A DNA stretch of 59,258 nt from the IMG/VR virus record IMGVR_UViG_3300044805_000178, positions 1-59,258 of that record; one strand, given 5' to 3'. Under the pieces are notes generated by a model, which worked only from the letters and a program-made list of their open reading frames with translations, was not told the DNA's origin and did no database searches. Shown piece by piece: positions 4,242 to 50,927 of this stretch. Source of the stretch: a virus (lineage: Duplodnaviria; Caudoviricetes). Numbering within the stretch: the first letter of the stretch is position 1; every line of letters begins with the position of its first letter. The translations under genes were made by a program, and so were the position numbers.

Positions 4242-4737
4242 GGAAGAAATGGCCGCTGCCCTTGATGGGCAGTTCTTCTGGGAAAAAACCACAAAATATG
4301 ATGACGCCAATATTGGGTACACGGCAGAGATAAGGAGGGCTCAGAAGAAGTTTGCCAAGCCAGCACCAAAGCCCACGCCTATCTATGTGCCCTACATTGG
4401 CAAGGTGAAAACTGTTGATCAGCGCATTGAAGCCCTAAAAAAGATGCCTTATGAGTTCGAAAAGCTCCACAACGCCATCACCAATCTCTACGGGATTTCA
4501 AAACGGGAATTGGAGGGTGAGGGTCCCCGCACAAAAACCTTCCCTGCTTTCGTGCATTATGTGTGGGCTGCAACAAGATACAATCCAAACGTCACGGTTG
4601 CAGAAATTGGCAAGAGGATCGGACGCCACCACAGCACCGTTATCTACCACAGAAACCACTTTGAGAGCAAAAAGCACCTCTACCTCGACAACATCAAGAT
4701 AATCGATGACATCTTCGACTACAAAGAGCCCGTTTAG
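4225..4737 (+). CDS. Protein with a DnaA C-terminal-like HTH domain
   Basis: TVAEIGKRIGRHHSTVIY resembles the DnaA domain IV signature IG..FGGRDHTTV. Confidence 0.7.
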   Translation: MKRSLEEEMAAALDGQFFWEKTTKYDDANIGYTAEIRRAQKKFAKPAPKPTPIYVPYIGKVKTVDQRIEALKKMPYEFEKLHNAITNLYGISKRELEGEGPRTKTFPAFVHYVWAATRYNPNVTVAEIGKRIGRHHSTVIYHRNHFESKKHLYLDNIKIIDDIFDYKEPV

Positions 4738-4801
4738 TTAAGTGGTATAACATCGGTTTTGTAATCCGAGGTTGGGAGTTCGATTCTCTCAACGGGCACC
4801 A
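4728..4801 (+). tRNA. tRNA-Thr (anticodon UGU) with encoded CCA
   Basis: Acceptor GCCCGTT/AACGGGC, D arm GTTA/TAAC, anticodon loop TTTGTAA, T arm GGGAG-TTCGATT-CTCTC, 3' ACCA. Confidence 0.93.
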
Positions 4802-43634: not shown

Positions 43635-43864
43635 TTCCTTTTTGCTTTCTCTTCATGGTTTGACCCGGCCCAATCAGTTCTTCCGTCCTTTGGACCTTTC
43701 CAACGATTACCAAATTCTTTCGGGTGTGGCAATAACTCTTTTTCAGTTTGCAGGGCATCACGCACAGCCGCGCGTTCGCGACTATGCTCTTGCTGTTTAA
43801 ATTGTTTCTCTGTTTCGGAAGTAGTGATCCCGGTTATGGGACGCTTCTTTCTGGATCTCGACAT
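43631..43864 (-). CDS. Small basic protein (MSRSRKK)
   Basis: SD GGAG; coupled. Confidence 0.6.
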   Translation of the reverse strand: MSRSRKKRPITGITTSETEKQFKQQEHSRERAAVRDALQTEKELLPHPKEFGNRWKGPKDGRTDWAGSNHEEKAKRK

Positions 43865-44592
43865 TCAATCTCCATCAAACGGCGACCGATAATCTCAGGG
43901 ATCTGTGGAACTACGGCGTTTCCGAGTTGCTTAAGTCGGTCCACCCGATTGGGAATCCCATCATCCATTCTCCGAACGAGGGGTGTAGGCCAACGATCTC
44001 CTGACTGGAACGGAGAGTTTGCGATGTCGAGCAAATCCTTCTCGCTACGCACCCCCCCCTGTCGAGCCTTGCCAATATCTGCGCTTGTGACCAATCTCTC
44101 CCCTCTCGCGCTGCCAATGTGGGCAATGATCCATATCCGGTCCCTTTGGTGAGGAGCACCAACGGCGGAAGCGGGGATGCAATGCCATTCCGCATCGTAC
44201 CCGATCTCAGAGAGCCCCCTGAGTACTTCGTCCAATCCTCTATTGCGAAGGGCTGAGACGTTTTCGATGATCGCATAGCGCGGCCTGATTTCCTTGATGA
44301 GCCTGTGGAACTCAAACCAGAGCCCGCTCCGCTTTCCTTCGAGACCCTCTCCTCGTCCTGCGAGGCTGATGTCTTGACAGGGGAACCCTCCGCAAATAAC
44401 GTCAACTTGCTCATTGATGTCCTCCTTCTTGAGCTTTGACACATCTTCAAAGATTGGCACTTCAGGCCAATGCTTCTTCAACACAAGCTGTGCTTTCTTG
44501 TCGATTTCACAAAAGGCGATGGTTTTCATCCCGGCTCTTTCAAGCCCAAGAGAGAATCCACCAATGCCAGAGAAAAGATCAAGTACGTTCAT
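43834..44592 (-). CDS. DNA (cytosine-5) methyltransferase, alpha chain (lacks motif IX)
   Basis: DLFSGIGG, GGFPCQ, ENV, HQRDRIW, LGNAVVP. Confidence 0.92.
   Translation of the reverse strand: MNVLDLFSGIGGFSLGLERAGMKTIAFCEIDKKAQLVLKKHWPEVPIFEDVSKLKKEDINEQVDVICGGFPCQDISLAGRGEGLEGKRSGLWFEFHRLIKEIRPRYAIIENVSALRNRGLDEVLRGLSEIGYDAEWHCIPASAVGAPHQRDRIWIIAHIGSARGERLVTSADIGKARQGGVRSEKDLLDIANSPFQSGDRWPTPLVRRMDDGIPNRVDRLKQLGNAVVPQIPEIIGRRLMEIECRDPERSVP
43911..44414 (-). CDS. Nested alternative-frame beta chain of the C5 methyltransferase
   Basis: SD AAGGAGG before ATG 44414; C-terminal LHPSFGEWMMGFPIGWTD is motif IX-like. Confidence 0.75.
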   Translation of the reverse strand: MSKLTLFAEGSPVKTSASQDEERVSKESGAGSGLSSTGSSRKSGRAMRSSKTSQPFAIEDWTKYSGGSLRSGTMRNGIASPLPPLVLLTKGTGYGSLPTLAAREGRDWSQAQILARLDRGGCVARRICSTSQTLRSSQEIVGLHPSFGEWMMGFPIGWTDLSNSETP

Positions 44593-46851: not shown

Positions 46852-47220
46852 ATGAGTGCCGTAGACAAGTCAATAATCACCTTCACCATATTCGGGGAAC
46901 CAGCGTCGAAGTCAAATGGCCGACGATGGACGGGGAAATTTCTCATCAAGTCAGAGAAGGCCCTGAACTACTCCGATATGTTTAAACAGCAGTGCCCCGT
47001 GCTTGATACCCTGATGGATGGGGATCTCCGCGTCACGATGAAGATATGGTATGCCAGCCGCAGGCCAGACCTAGATGCAAGTCTGATCTTCGACCTGATG
47101 CAAGACTGCATCTATAAGAATGATCGCGCCGTTAAGGAACAGCATCTCTACTGGGGCCTTGACAAAAACAATCCTCGCGCCGAAATCACGGTCGAGAAGA
47201 TCCATGCGTTAAACACATAG
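46852..47220 (+). CDS. rusA: RusA-like Holliday junction resolvase
   Basis: GEPASKSN, RPDLD..LIFD, IYKNDRAV, DKNNPRAEI. Confidence 0.85.
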   Translation: MSAVDKSIITFTIFGEPASKSNGRRWTGKFLIKSEKALNYSDMFKQQCPVLDTLMDGDLRVTMKIWYASRRPDLDASLIFDLMQDCIYKNDRAVKEQHLYWGLDKNNPRAEITVEKIHALNT

Positions 47221-47225
47221 CTGCT

Positions 47226-47564
47226 ATGCAAAAAGAAGAAAGCATCTACGCTGCCCTATTTGATCAACCCGGCACATCCCTCACGAACGAACGAATCCTC
47301 TGGCTGCATGTTCTGGCGCAGGCTCTCATTGATTGTTCTGTAAACAACCTAGAGGTGAGGCAGGAAGCCGTAAGTTGGGTGGGAACCCCGGACTTTGACG
47401 AGGTATGCAGTTTTGCTGGGGTGGATACTCCTTTTATGCATAGCTTATTCCAGTCGGTTATGAGTGAGAGAAGCAGCAAGCGTGCATTCAAAAAAGCCAT
47501 GCAATTCAGGTTCTTAGTGAGAACCTACATCGAAAACAACATGGGTTTTGCCGATAAGCTGTAG
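47226..47564 (+). CDS. Hypothetical protein
   Basis: LW.HVLAQALID..EA..W..DF.EVC.FAG. Confidence 0.7.
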   Translation: MQKEESIYAALFDQPGTSLTNERILWLHVLAQALIDCSVNNLEVRQEAVSWVGTPDFDEVCSFAGVDTPFMHSLFQSVMSERSSKRAFKKAMQFRFLVRTYIENNMGFADKL

Positions 47565-47566
47565 GC

Positions 47567-47596
47567 TTGCATATCTTGAGTGCCGTGTGATATGGT
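47567..47596 (+). promoter_or_regulatory. Putative sigma70 promoter
   Basis: TTGCAT-N18-TATGGT with a TG extension. Confidence 0.45.
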
Positions 47597-47597
47597 T

Positions 47598-47925
47598 GAG
47601 GTTCCGGTGCTTTGGCCACTTCGGCACTGGTCGGCCCTGCTGGTTGGCAACTATGCTGGCAGGTAAACCGTAGCTTCCCGAAAGGGATGGGACGGGCAAA
47701 TGATGGGGGTTGTTAGTGAAGAGCGACAACCCTACGCAAATGAGGAATACTCTCTCGCATAGCCGCCTAAATTGCGGCTCCGGTAACGGATAGAGAAACA
47801 TCCTGAATTGCAGTTTGCCTTAGTTGCCTGTTGTTCGTGCCGAAGCGGCTCGTCCGGACAGAATTCCAGCTACCAATCCTGCGGATTAACTTCCGTGGGA
47901 AGTGGTAGCTGTTGCCCGAAACCTC
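47598..47925 (+). ncRNA. Large (~330 nt) structured non-coding RNA candidate upstream of the HNH gene
   Basis: Four nested long-range helices plus five local hairpins, two with GNRA loops; G-U pairs favour + strand RNA. Confidence 0.65.
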
Positions 47926-47946
47926 GCTCTCATCGGACAGGGTGTA

Positions 47947-48708
47947 ATGGACATAACAGCTATAAGAGTTTCAGCAAGGCAAATAAAAAGAAACATAGCC
48001 AAGCTTAAGAAGAAAGATCCAAAAACAAAAAAAATTAACAGAGCTATAGAGAAGGCTGAGAGAAATCTTGCGAAGAAGCTCTCTATACTTGATGAGATTG
48101 GTGTATCTGAGAAATTTGAGCGGAAGCCTAGAAAGAAAAAGCCCACTTCATTTGGCTTTGGCGATTACAACAAGTACATAAGTTCAAAGGAATGGGCGGC
48201 GAGAAAGGCCTCCTATTATGAAACCCACCACAAAGAGTGTAGATCCTGCGGCACAGATGAGAAAGAGATTCATTTGCATCATAGGAGCTATGCAAGAATA
48301 TATCAGGAAGAAGATGGCGACCTGATTCCAATGTGTGTAGACTGCCATGCCATGCTTCATAAATTTCAAAGAAGCATGAAGCTTCCAGTTGAAGACGCCA
48401 CAAGAATGTGGCTATCAACAACAAACGGAACATCGAAAAAGAAAAAAATCAGGGCGGCATTGAGAAGTATGTCGTTTAAATCATTTGAAGGTTTGTGGGC
48501 CAAGAGATCAAAGCTTCATTCTTCCCCTGAGCAACATCTGGAAAAAACAATAGAGAGAATTGTTAAGGGTGATATAGGGTCAAGAAACGATCTACTTCAG
48601 GATCATGCCGGGTTCAAGAAATCTATTGCCTTGGCAGGAAGAACGGGTGTAGAGAAATTTTATGATGCAAGGGTTGATGCGCTCATACGCAAGCTTGAGC
48701 GTCAGTAA
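47947..48708 (+). CDS. HNH endonuclease with basic N- and C-terminal extensions
   Basis: YISSKEW..RK, CRSC, HLHHRSY..E..DLIPMCVDCH..H. Confidence 0.85.
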   Translation: MDITAIRVSARQIKRNIAKLKKKDPKTKKINRAIEKAERNLAKKLSILDEIGVSEKFERKPRKKKPTSFGFGDYNKYISSKEWAARKASYYETHHKECRSCGTDEKEIHLHHRSYARIYQEEDGDLIPMCVDCHAMLHKFQRSMKLPVEDATRMWLSTTNGTSKKKKIRAALRSMSFKSFEGLWAKRSKLHSSPEQHLEKTIERIVKGDIGSRNDLLQDHAGFKKSIALAGRTGVEKFYDARVDALIRKLERQ

Positions 48709-48721
48709 AAAGGAGGATCAA

Positions 48722-49012
48722 ATGGCTGACTTAACAGAAAAGATGGCACGAAATATCGCCGTTGCTCTAAACGGCGGTGAGTTTAATGATGGCAAGTGGT
48801 ACGGTGAAGGCCATAGGACTGCATGGCGTAATGCAGTGAAACCTTATGCCGAAGAGATTGAGCAGAACCGTATAGACCTTGAGGAGTACCGCAGGGATGT
48901 TGAACGTCTGAGGGCGGCGCTGGATAAAATATCCAATGACAATTGGTTTTTTATCGAGGATGCGAAGGGTATTGCCTGCGCCGCATTGAATTCAAAAGGA
49001 GAACTACCATGA
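48722..49012 (+). CDS. Hypothetical protein
   Basis: SD AAGGAGG. Confidence 0.65.
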   Translation: MADLTEKMARNIAVALNGGEFNDGKWYGEGHRTAWRNAVKPYAEEIEQNRIDLEEYRRDVERLRAALDKISNDNWFFIEDAKGIACAALNSKGELP

Positions 49013-49197
49013 CAAAACCAAACCCCGGAACCAAAGAAGCCATTGAAGCTGGCTGCATCTGCCCCGTGCTTGACAACAACCACGGCAAGGGCATCCCAAT
49101 CAAAACCAAGGACGGCACTATCCAAACAGGATATTGGATGGATGGCACATGCCCCCTTCACGGGATCTTTGAAACCAAGGCCGAAGATGGGGAGTAA
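49009..49197 (+). CDS. Small Cys/His phage protein
   Basis: PNPG..EA...GC.CPVLDN..G...CPLH. Confidence 0.7.
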   Translation: MTKPNPGTKEAIEAGCICPVLDNNHGKGIPIKTKDGTIQTGYWMDGTCPLHGIFETKAEDGE

Positions 49198-49202
49198 TCC
49201 CC

Positions 49203-50927
49203 ATGAGCCGCGAACAAAATCTTATTAACATAGCCCGCTATGGGCAGCACAAGTATCAGTGCCCTTGGTGTTCCTTCGGAAGGCGGAACAAGAAAGAGGC
49301 ATGTCTCAGCGTCAACCGCGATGACAACAGGATTGTGTATTCCTGCCATCATTGCGGGGTCGAGGGTTTGATACCCATGCGCTCAGAGCATAGGAGATAT
49401 GAAAAATTGGAACCCCGCAAAGATAAGGTGGTAGAGCGCCGCAAGATAGAGGACTTCAACCCCATCGAAGATCGGCATCTTGAATGGTTATCGGAAAGAG
49501 GTATATCCGCCTCCACGGCACTCAAGTATGAACTGGTTGGGTATGACAAGGATGATGAGGCTGTTGTGGGTTTCCCCTACTACGACAAGACAGGGAATGT
49601 GGTTGCGCTCAAGCAGCGCTTCACAGGCGAGAAGAAATTCTTGTGCTGGCAAACCCCGGATTCATTCTTTGGTATTAGGCACTTAAAGAAGGGTGACAAC
49701 ATCTATATCGTAGAGGGCGAGATGGATGTGTTGGCACTCGCGGAGGTTGGCGTGAGGGCCGTGAGTGTCCCGAACGGGGCACCTATGAAAGTGACGGAAG
49801 GTAAGATTGATCCGTCCGAGGATGGCAAGTTTAAATTCTTGTGGGATGCGAAGGAGTATATCGATGCTGCTGAAAGGGTGCTTATTGCGACAGACCATGA
49901 TGGTCCGGGAGAGGCGCTGGCCGAAGAGATTGCTCGTAGAGTTGGGAAGGGCAAGAGTTGGCGCATTAAATTCCCCGAGGGCATCAAGGATGCAAATGAA
50001 TGCCTTGTCAAATGCGGTGCGGCGGCTCTTAAGCGCTCGACCGAAGCGGCCCAGCCTTGGCCAGTCCAAGGCCTCTACGATGCCTTCCACTTCCGGGATG
50101 CGATACGGGAGCTATACGACAAAGGAGCGGGTAAAGGAGAATCGACTGGGTATTTATCGGTCGATGACCTCTACACTATCGTGCCGGGCCAAGTCACAAT
50201 TTGTACTGGAGTGCCGTCGAGCGGCAAGTCGGAATTTATAGACCAGTTGATGGTTAATCTTGCCTCTAAGAGAGGATGGAGGTTTGGCATCTGTTCTTTC
50301 GAGAACGAGCCGCGTTTACACATATCAAAGCTGATGGCGAAGAGGGCGCAGCTTCACTTCTTTGAAGGCCCGACACGGAGGATGAACGGTGAGGAGTTCA
50401 ATGCGGCACTCGACTGGGTTCAGGAGCATTTTGCCTTTGTTTGGCAGGATGATGGTGGGCTTGCTGACCTTGATAGCATTTTGGACAGGCTCCGCGTGGC
50501 CATCCTCCGTTATGGCGTTCGCGGCGCTGTTATTGATCCCTATAATTTTATCAGCAGAGACAATCGCAATCAGGCTGAGACGGAGTGGATCTCGGACATG
50601 CTCACGAAGGTTAAGGCGTTCGCGATGGGGCACGGGGTTCATATCTGGTTCGTCGCGCATCCCACCAAACTACAGCGCGGCACAGACGGGAAGATCCCGG
50701 TCCCCGGCGGCTACGACATATCTGGATCGGCGGCGTGGTTCGCGAAAGCAGACTGCGGGGTCACAGTACACAGGGAAAAGGATGATCCACTGACGGCACA
50801 AATTCATGTGTGGAAGTGCCGATTTGCATGGGTCGGGAAACAAGGCGCAACAAATCTTATTTACAATACGTCAACGACATGCTATGTCGAGCCTGTTCTT
50901 TCAGAGGAAAGGGATTTCAAGCTGTGA
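49203..50927 (+). CDS. Primase-helicase (T7 gp4/Twinkle-like)
   Basis: Zn finger CPWC..CHHC; TOPRIM VEGEMD, D.D..G, KDANE; Walker A GVPSSGKS; VAHP; DISGS. Confidence 0.95.
   Translation: MSREQNLINIARYGQHKYQCPWCSFGRRNKKEACLSVNRDDNRIVYSCHHCGVEGLIPMRSEHRRYEKLEPRKDKVVERRKIEDFNPIEDRHLEWLSERGISASTALKYELVGYDKDDEAVVGFPYYDKTGNVVALKQRFTGEKKFLCWQTPDSFFGIRHLKKGDNIYIVEGEMDVLALAEVGVRAVSVPNGAPMKVTEGKIDPSEDGKFKFLWDAKEYIDAAERVLIATDHDGPGEALAEEIARRVGKGKSWRIKFPEGIKDANECLVKCGAAALKRSTEAAQPWPVQGLYDAFHFRDAIRELYDKGAGKGESTGYLSVDDLYTIVPGQVTICTGVPSSGKSEFIDQLMVNLASKRGWRFGICSFENEPRLHISKLMAKRAQLHFFEGPTRRMNGEEFNAALDWVQEHFAFVWQDDGGLADLDSILDRLRVAILRYGVRGAVIDPYNFISRDNRNQAETEWISDMLTKVKAFAMGHGVHIWFVAHPTKLQRGTDGKIPVPGGYDISGSAAWFAKADCGVTVHREKDDPLTAQIHVWKCRFAWVGKQGATNLIYNTSTTCYVEPVLSEERDFKL

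Follow-up and report, generated by a model that had tools for sequence, protein, structure and literature searches.

Does the long non-coding gap that lies directly upstream of an HNH nuclease gene in a phage genome encode a functional RNA and, if so, is that RNA a partner of the nuclease, a control element of its gene or an unrelated neighbor? The stretch of DNA analyzed, called the window throughout, is a 59,258-bp IMG/VR virus record (IMGVR_UViG_3300044805_000178, Caudoviricetes) that looks complete (99%). A first-pass annotation, made from the letters alone, had read the gap as an ornate structured RNA that together with the HNH protein formed a candidate ribonucleoprotein (RNP) system, possibly RNA guided or mobile. 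We found that positions 47597-47946 of the plus strand encode a previously undescribed, large, structured RNA of about 345 nucleotides (nt) with 13 helices and at least one pseudoknot, which is absent from Rfam 15 and which we call RNA-A. We established its fold and strand, the constraint on its sequence, its adjacency to the HNH gene, the boundaries of the cassette that the two form and the alternative alleles present at the same site. Among several readings of its role, we tentatively prefer that of a 5′ leader of the HNH mRNA.

The case for RNA-A was built on its homologues. Three collections, searched with RNA patterns that leave the protein out, gave eight distinct sequences, six complete and two truncated at contig ends, which represent four to five diverged lineages. 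Beyond the window the copies lie on four IMG/VR contigs, three metagenome contigs (two of which truncate it) and one contig of a metagenome-assembled genome (MAG), which is 10 kb long and binned in a pond alphaproteobacterial MAG; all copies come from freshwater-type metagenomes. A 19-mer (47835-53) used as search pattern retrieved every homologue. In the alignment of the homologues, the insertions and deletions form single-base columns and the substitutions are those of compensatory pairs with no three-base period; hence the gap is non-coding, as the first-pass annotation had taken it to be. The gap folds better than its shuffled versions on the plus strand (z = -4.5) and also on the minus strand (z = -6.1), and thus the z-score alone does not tell the strand. 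The alignment does: it holds 55 G-U cells versus 9 A-C cells and is 95.6% paired when read as plus strand versus 88.7% as minus strand. The folded strand is therefore the plus strand, also in agreement with the earlier proposal. A covariance model of the RNA matched the window over 47597-47952 with a score of 415.6 bits.

RNA-A is both unlike known RNAs and rare. It drew no Rfam 15 match when the whole window was scanned at the gathering score or when 701 bases (47400-48100) were scanned at E<=10, a negative that takes in HEARO, group I and II introns, GIR1, RNase P, tmRNA, riboswitches and the known large RNAs. Scans of 15 related loci at the gathering score likewise gave no known RNA family. 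The GenBank phages gave no DNA match to RNA-A. Four different RNA-A motifs run against IMG/VR recovered just the same four contigs, a separate 23-mer found no match there, and the first pattern used on the metagenomes found none either. The covariance model, run over 48 sources, returned the known copies only, and RNA-A was not found in the 150 further genomes searched from the order of the MAG. A literature search at the level of listings and abstracts gave no described RNA of this type.

Rarity is accompanied by strong conservation. Between lineages RNA-A is 73-83% identical; the corresponding figures are 63-69% (HNH gene) and 65-79% (primase gene). As RNA-A retains this identity while the synonymous sites of the HNH gene are saturated (proportion of synonymous differences 0.78-0.87), it must be under strong purifying selection. 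The three closest copies tell the same story at short range: they differ at 1 of 351 positions in RNA-A and at 9-15 of 759 positions in the HNH gene.

The structure model was drawn by hand on the eight-sequence alignment (A2) and was later corrected to add one helix, H13. RNAalifold, given the first four sequences, had found compensatory changes in 16 of 107 pairs. The final model has 98 pairs; 97.4% of the 664 cells are paired and 27 of the 98 pairs have changed on both sides. Control models in which the partners were slid by one to three columns were 33-44% paired with two to seven compensatory pairs, and none of 500 shuffles matched the observed values of cells paired, pairs changed on both sides or covariation score. 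The fold first proposed for the gap, a set of nested long-range helices enclosing local hairpins, survived in part. Its local hairpins (the GAAA-capped one at 47676 and those at 47706-33, 47762-78, 47779-90 with its GNRA loop, and 47867-47911) are kept in the homologues, several with compensatory changes, as is one of its four long-range helices, whereas the other three were not confirmed. In the closing helix (47598-607/47916-25) pairing reaches only 59.6% and no pair is compensatory, and the helix of AGGTAAAC with GTTTGCCT is 77% paired; neither is kept in the homologues. That of GGCCACTTCGGCAC with GTGCCGAAGCGGCT is 87.7% paired with no compensatory pairs and competes with a covarying hairpin (47604-10/47624-30); its bases are invariant, and hence covariation cannot test it.

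Read from its 5′ end, the kept structure begins with that competing hairpin, H2 (47604-47630), which has 7 bp (three of the seven pairs compensatory) and a nearly invariant 13-nt loop. The loop is complementary to the invariant segment 47841-48 (by duplex energy, shuffle fraction 0.015) and also to 47900-07. The outermost helix kept is H3 (47631-47634 with 47916-47919), which is 100% paired; all four pairs are invariant, so that covariation gives no test of it. Within it H4 (47636-47663) is a hairpin with three of eight pairs compensatory, and its loop supplies one strand of the surviving long-range helix, formed by GGCAACTA (47646-53) and TAGTTGCC (47821-28). This helix, PK1, is paired in all sequences and two of its eight pairs are compensatory, but it is a pseudoknot rather than the nested helix first described, because its 5′ strand sits in the loop of a covarying hairpin (47636-43/47656-63). 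H5 (47668-47695) is a stem with an internal loop and the GAAA-capped hairpin, its seven pairs all invariant. H13 (47697-47701 with 47813-47817) was found from two variable, seemingly unpaired stretches that proved complementary in every lineage while differing in sequence; four of its five pairs are compensatory and 96.7% of its cells are paired. It takes the place of one of the failed long-range helices. An exhaustive scan for conserved helices was too noisy to be of use except as the lead to checking H13. The GCAAATGA repeat pointed out in the first-pass annotation is not conserved, its first copy being the variable strand of this helix.

H13 encloses H6 and the domain of H7 to H10. The hairpin H6 (47706-47733) has 8 bp, five of them compensatory, and a nearly invariant 12-nt loop that is complementary to the tail of the RNA at 47925-33 (by duplex energy, shuffle fraction 0.022). 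The H7-H8 stalk (47736-47811) ends in a three-way junction with H9 (47762-78) and the GNRA-capped H10 (47779-90); compensatory changes are seen in five of five pairs of H8, one of nine of H7 and one of four of H10. After the 3′ strand of PK1 come the H11 region (47829-47866), about 38 nt that are nearly invariant in all eight sequences (10 of 10 pairs invariant), and H12 (47867-47911), a long two-part hairpin in which 98.6% of cells are paired and the 18 pairs include three compensatory and six one-sided changes. The 3′ strand of H3 and the tail (47916-47946) close the RNA. The tail is invariant in all eight copies and ends in a Shine-Dalgarno (SD)-like GGACAGG (47935-41) that stops 5 nt short of the ATG in the window, the spacing being comparably short in all eight copies. 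From the complementarities given above, we infer that the invariant loops may make tertiary pairings, that of H2 with 47841-48 and that of H6 with 47925-33.

The tie of RNA-A to the nuclease gene, on which the first-pass annotation had staked its proposal, was borne out. Each of the eight copies lies directly 5′ of an HNH homologue (48-98% identity) at a fixed distance, and no copy lacks one. By our reading, the over-called ORFs (open reading frames) of five further HNH clusters (P0001, P0007, P0008, P0009 and P0014) translate the RNA-A tail as N-terminal extensions, which places an RNA-A tail upstream in these clusters too. A scan found no terminator-like site between RNA-A and the HNH ORF. 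On one contig (L191, positions 1-970) the 3′ half of the RNA is 90% identical to that of the window and the primase 97%, but the HNH protein, which has a TTG start, is only 48% identical; this mosaic suggests recombination at the invariant RNA tail.

The HNH gene (47947-48708, plus strand) is real: six PHROG matches cover residues 62-170 of its 253-residue product, five of them named HNH endonuclease. The protein is as rich in lysine and arginine as had been noticed (58 of 253 residues, isoelectric point 9.95). AlphaFold2 (AF2) predicted a helical hairpin (residues 3-51), an HNH core (residues ~73-143) and a helical C-terminal domain at a mean predicted local distance difference test score (pLDDT) of 77.6; in the model the small beta-beta-alpha core sits between helical domains and no RuvC domain is seen. 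The family alignment has 58 invariant columns spread over the whole length, the two CxxC pairs and an HLHH motif being invariant in 15 of 15 sequences, and no PLMP motif appears among the invariant columns. Among the closest copies the ratio of nonsynonymous to synonymous change (dN/dS) is 0.12-0.32, which denotes purifying selection. The HNH proteins next to RNA-A have 252-254 residues.

Full-length relatives of this protein are few. Only 15 clusters among 5.8 billion belong to the family (12 representatives at 50% identity matched at E<=1e-30) and the next match covers 28% of the query, whereas the HNH core alone has 20,726 relatives. The rarity lies in the N- and C-terminal domains, which occur in about a dozen clusters, rather than in the core. 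GenBank phage proteins matched the core only, an alignment search in IMG/VR gave no extra full-length relative, and Pfam, NCBIfam and PADLOC have no family for the protein. The family profile matched no PDB chain at E<=10, though IscB and Cas9 chains are in the library. Foldseek of the predicted model against the PDB gave nothing at E<=0.001, with 9lir and Cas9 appearing only as weak rows. VIA-align of residues 1-58 returned generic helical hairpins only (Z<=7.7, within the stated background).

The RNA and the gene behave as one cassette, which runs from just after a promoter-like element to the HNH stop codon. The element (47567-47596, plus strand) has a -35-like hexamer at 47567-72, a TG at 47588-89 and a -10-like hexamer at 47591-96, and its transcription start, as read from the sequence, would be at about 47602-04. 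Its pattern, TTGnnn-N18-TGnTAnnnT, is kept in all lineages (the A-type, B-type and L107 relatives), including those without RNA-A, and it forms the left boundary of the cassette. L107, a phage locus with a primase 98% identical to that of the window, has no cassette, and L108, with a primase 97% identical, has one. L107 matches the window collinearly up to position 47596 and resumes at 48996; the intervening part (1685-3794 of L107) comprises about 600 ORF-free nt and, after them, ORFs of 226, 95 and 181 residues. The last matches the Pfam family Vut_1, a putative vitamin or queuosine-precursor transporter. The 226-residue ORF looked like a DpdA-type enzyme, an assignment that no library (Pfam, NCBIfam or PADLOC) supports and that we dropped. 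The leader of L107, with a fold z-score of -0.81, is not shown to be structured, and we also rejected it as a diverged RNA-A (no nhmmer match; at most 6 bits with the filters of the model off).

The right boundary came from two loci, L002 and L232, which have RNA-A and the HNH gene but not orf96 (48722-49012, plus strand), a 96-residue ORF that follows the HNH gene in the window. There the HNH stop codon marks the end of the cassette and the next gene starts 15 nt later, and thus orf96 is a separate insertion (window 48709-48995). Three DNA runs show the corresponding joint of 48707 to 48994, and the contigs of an RNA run that match the stretch (48693-49027) cover orf96, for which Pfam, PHROGs, PADLOC and NCBIfam have no family. 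Two DNA runs, X10 and X18, hold both the cassette and an allele in which 516 other letters replace 47573-49008. Such presence and absence alleles, at the same slot in near-identical phages, support the proposal of a swappable or selfish cassette.

In sister phages that lack the HNH gene, the slot behind the same promoter-like element holds another non-coding stretch of about 260 nt, the candidate structured RNA RNA-B (L114 3470-3720, L109 3473-3709 and L112 3593-3853; also L113, L118 and L134). It has 18 compensatory pairs among 102 predicted, many plus-strand G-U pairs and no ORF of its own, and it has no Rfam match; scans at E<=10 of the RNA-A, RNA-B and L107 leaders gave no known family. 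RNA-B was considered as a diverged RNA-A and rejected, as the two have no common 10-mer and no nhmmer match and the RNA-A model scores RNA-B at 1.2 bits or less; they are not alleles of one RNA. Relatives whose slot had looked empty carry RNA-B there. Ten loci found through the primase alone (with orf112 and a primase identity of at least 66%) divide into six with RNA-B, three with RNA-A plus HNH and one other (L107); the 32 other primase-found loci (identity 40-51%) have neither RNA. In run X11 a loose end at 47602 looks like the 5′ part of RNA-B, which makes it probable that the RNA-B allele is in circulation among near-identical phages from samples of this kind. RNA-B is followed by an A-rich run and by a second promoter-like element, and the latter (L112 3925-3960) closely resembles window 47567-47600. 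The RNA cassettes thus appear to be bracketed by repeated promoter sequence, which could be the recombination substrate for cassette swapping; the arrangement calls to mind the shuffling of promoter-stem-loop units known from T4-type phages.

What, then, does RNA-A do? Phages harbor free-standing homing endonucleases, such as those of the T4 seg and mob genes and HNH enzymes like I-HmuI, and in the case of I-TevI an RNA structure limits translation. The cassette resembles these in being a small nuclease gene between conserved genes with presence/absence alleles in close relatives; its HNH motif residues are intact and its occurrence among close relatives is sporadic and confined to one locus. 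The explanation that we put first, with a confidence that stops a little short of even, is that RNA-A serves a dedicated, free-standing, homing-type HNH gene as its mRNA 5′ leader, that the two are co-inherited, and that the fold of RNA-A, or binding of the HNH protein to it, sets translation. RNA-A is contiguous with the HNH ribosome-binding site, as expected of a leader in the 5′ untranslated region. It would be transcribed from the promoter-like element along with the HNH gene and the primase-helicase operon that follows, and its compact fold would end in the invariant tail bearing the ribosome-binding site, a tail that may dock to the H6 loop. The fold would set the timing and amount of HNH translation. 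The basic HNH protein would most likely bind its own leader, either as feedback or in a stable complex, and the nuclease would cut phage genomes that carry another allele, with spread or retention of the cassette as the outcome.

Several points weigh against RNA-A as a leader and temper our confidence, chiefly that thermodynamic folds show no helix that sequesters the SD region consistently and that an ORF-less RNA-B occupies the same slot. In the folds of four lineages the SD region pairs with different partners. The proposed tertiary pairings use only bases that never vary, on which covariation is silent, and the complementarity of the tail to H11 is no better than that of shuffles (fraction 0.24). 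The sole RNA run that matches the stretch gave contigs over 48693-49027, outside RNA-A, although in that single run the lack of RNA-A cover carries no weight as absence. The promoter-like element, which the first-pass annotation had called sigma70-like, is conserved in all lineages as given above but was not called by a consensus promoter scan and is weak by consensus. RNA-B, unrelated in sequence and structured, implies that RNAs in this slot can function without the HNH gene. A fold of 345 nt and 13 helices is far larger than any homing-endonuclease translational operator known to us; such operators are single hairpins, and RNA-A is also pseudoknotted and better conserved than its nuclease. 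Finally, the sample is of only four or five independent lineages, ascertained through conserved RNA or HNH sequence, so that divergent HNH-less copies could escape it.

RNA-A might instead be an independent phage RNA in a dedicated slot upstream of the replication operon, with the HNH gene a selfish neighbor that homes without an intron, its product cutting genomes with the other allele and repair then copying RNA-A and the HNH gene into them, a view that we consider possible but doubtful. The six-three-one division of the ten primase-found loci fits such a slot, as do the covariation of RNA-B, its lack of an ORF and the second promoter-like element behind it, together with the finding of both alleles in the same DNA runs with shared flanks; an HNH family confined to one locus also has the look of a site-specific homing enzyme. 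Yet none of the eight RNA-A copies occurs without the HNH gene, and RNA-A and RNA-B, as shown above, are two different RNAs rather than alleles. Homing endonuclease genes tend to decay and to occur sporadically; this one is intact and under purifying selection and has diverged along with the primase (65-68% versus 66% amino-acid identity). The invariant RNA tail, moreover, passes into the ribosome-binding site of the HNH gene, and does so at a constant spacing. The adjacency also recalls the HEARO/omegaRNA-IscB and IshB systems, in which an RNA of about 300 nt, pseudoknotted like RNA-A, lies immediately upstream of an HNH ORF, reaches the start region and is more conserved than the protein. 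RNA-A could accordingly be imagined as a trans-acting subunit (scaffold, activator or fixed guide) of an HNH-only RNP nuclease that is analogous to these systems but not descended from them, which we judge distinctly unlikely; an obligate RNP of RNA-A and the HNH protein unrelated to OMEGA and CRISPR, in which the RNA would activate, target or restrain the nuclease through an RNA-DNA or RNA-RNA contact that is fixed and not programmable, or would itself be catalytic, seems unlikely as well, if slightly less so. The basic helical domains peculiar to the family and without match elsewhere would suit an RNA-binding nuclease of this kind, and so would the stronger constraint on RNA-A than on the protein. 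HNH-only relatives of IscB have been reported: IshB is described as an HNH-only branch of OMEGA proteins of about 180 residues with an N-terminal PLMP domain followed by HNH (PMC11610941, PMC13284715), as against the 253 residues and helical-hairpin N terminus of the present protein. HEARO and IscB belong to IS200/IS605 elements, whereas RNA-A lies in a phage replication module, has no HEARO match and lacks a variable guide; its HNH protein has no RuvC domain (no Pfam family and none in the AF2 model) and no PDB similarity. The proposal of an RNA-guided system fared poorly in particular. The longest variable unpaired run in RNA-A is 10 nt, and the stretch before the first hairpin extends 0-12 nt past the predicted start as against the roughly 16 nt or more of a guide. 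No 12-mer is common to RNA-A and six cassette-less relatives, and its 13-14-nt matches at three loci of the window are ordinary, as 15% of 157 other pieces have at least three. With such short variable runs, no 12-mer matches and ordinary 13-14-mers, a programmable guide is unlikely, and nothing found shows an RNP or RNA guidance.

Two further readings place RNA-A in DNA replication or in RNA catalysis. As a replication origin or primer transcript, the RNA or its single-stranded DNA form would prime or activate replication, a role that we hold to be very unlikely. RNA-A does precede the primase-helicase gene by 1.25 kb and sits just past the point where leftward and rightward genes diverge, the cumulative GC skew passes through a local minimum at 44-48 kb, and some kind of long leader follows the same promoter in all members of the clade. 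However, the skew change coincides with the coding-strand switch and hence is not specific to an origin, and GNRA loops, a covarying pseudoknot and linkage to an HNH gene are not expected of one. The origin alternative raised in the first-pass annotation was weakened by relatives with the same primase-helicase and no RNA-A, namely L107 and the six RNA-B phages. A catalytic RNA is to our mind scarcely probable, whether as a self-splicing intron that carries a homing endonuclease or as a ribozyme whose self-cleavage or capping activity makes the 5′ end of the HNH mRNA. Large size, a pseudoknot, high conservation (notably of junctions and loops) and a position directly 5′ of a homing-type ORF speak for it. 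The GIR1 lariat-capping ribozyme, a complex pseudoknotted RNA, precedes the homing endonuclease gene I-DirI in this way and defines the 5′ end of its mRNA. Rfam holds a GIR1 family, but RNA-A matches no Rfam ribozyme or intron family even at E<=10 over the 701 bases, and it lies in a bacterial virus outside any intron. The flanking ORFs are complete: orf112 is closed by a stop codon of its own in each lineage. No 3′ intron part follows the HNH stop codon, at which the cassette ends. By our reading no P7-like element stands beside the P3-like pseudoknot. H12 was tried as a group II domain V and discarded, since what would be the AGC triad varies at its third base; ORF and Pfam annotation of the window found no reverse transcriptase gene. 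These results agree with the first-pass annotation that RNA-A is neither a group I or II intron nor a HEARO/IscB element.

The cassette sits among genes of DNA metabolism. Upstream on the plus strand is the gene for RusA (46852-47220), followed by orf112 (47226-47564), an ORF of 112 residues with no assigned function, and genes for an ERF-type annealing protein and a PD-(D/E)XK exonuclease lie near the RNA-A locus on the minus strand. Downstream, orf62 (49009-49197, plus strand; 62 residues) lies between orf96 and the primase-helicase gene (49203-50927, plus strand). Elsewhere in the window, a minus-strand ORF of 252 residues (43834-44592) has N-terminal motifs that, read from the translation, resemble those of C-5 cytosine DNA methyltransferases, making it a putative enzyme of that type. 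A tRNA-Thr gene with anticodon TGT (4728-4801) is the sole Rfam and ARAGORN match in the window, and a search of the window for tRNA and tmRNA genes gave nothing besides it.

The RNA family is new, whereas precedents exist both for a large RNA that precedes an HNH ORF and for a nuclease cassette set between conserved genes of phages. In size, helix number, sequence constraint and phage association RNA-A resembles GOLLD, ROOL, OLE and raiA (bioRxiv 10.1101/2024.12.08.627333), but Rfam matches none of them to it, and it differs in its tie to one protein gene and, from GOLLD and ROOL, in its smaller size. Large, constrained, structured RNAs are few, and they have repeatedly proved to be ribozymes or the cores of RNPs. 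RNA-A is bound to one rare nuclease family, so that an RNA and a 253-residue protein would suffice as a two-component test system. If RNA-A controls or partners the nuclease, the cassette would be a second link between HNH enzymes and large RNAs, besides that of OMEGA and CRISPR; if the two form an obligate RNP, phages would have evolved an RNA-dependent nuclease independently. Should neither hold, the locus would still be a phage hot spot that exchanges RNA-A and RNA-B behind one promoter, upstream of the replication genes.

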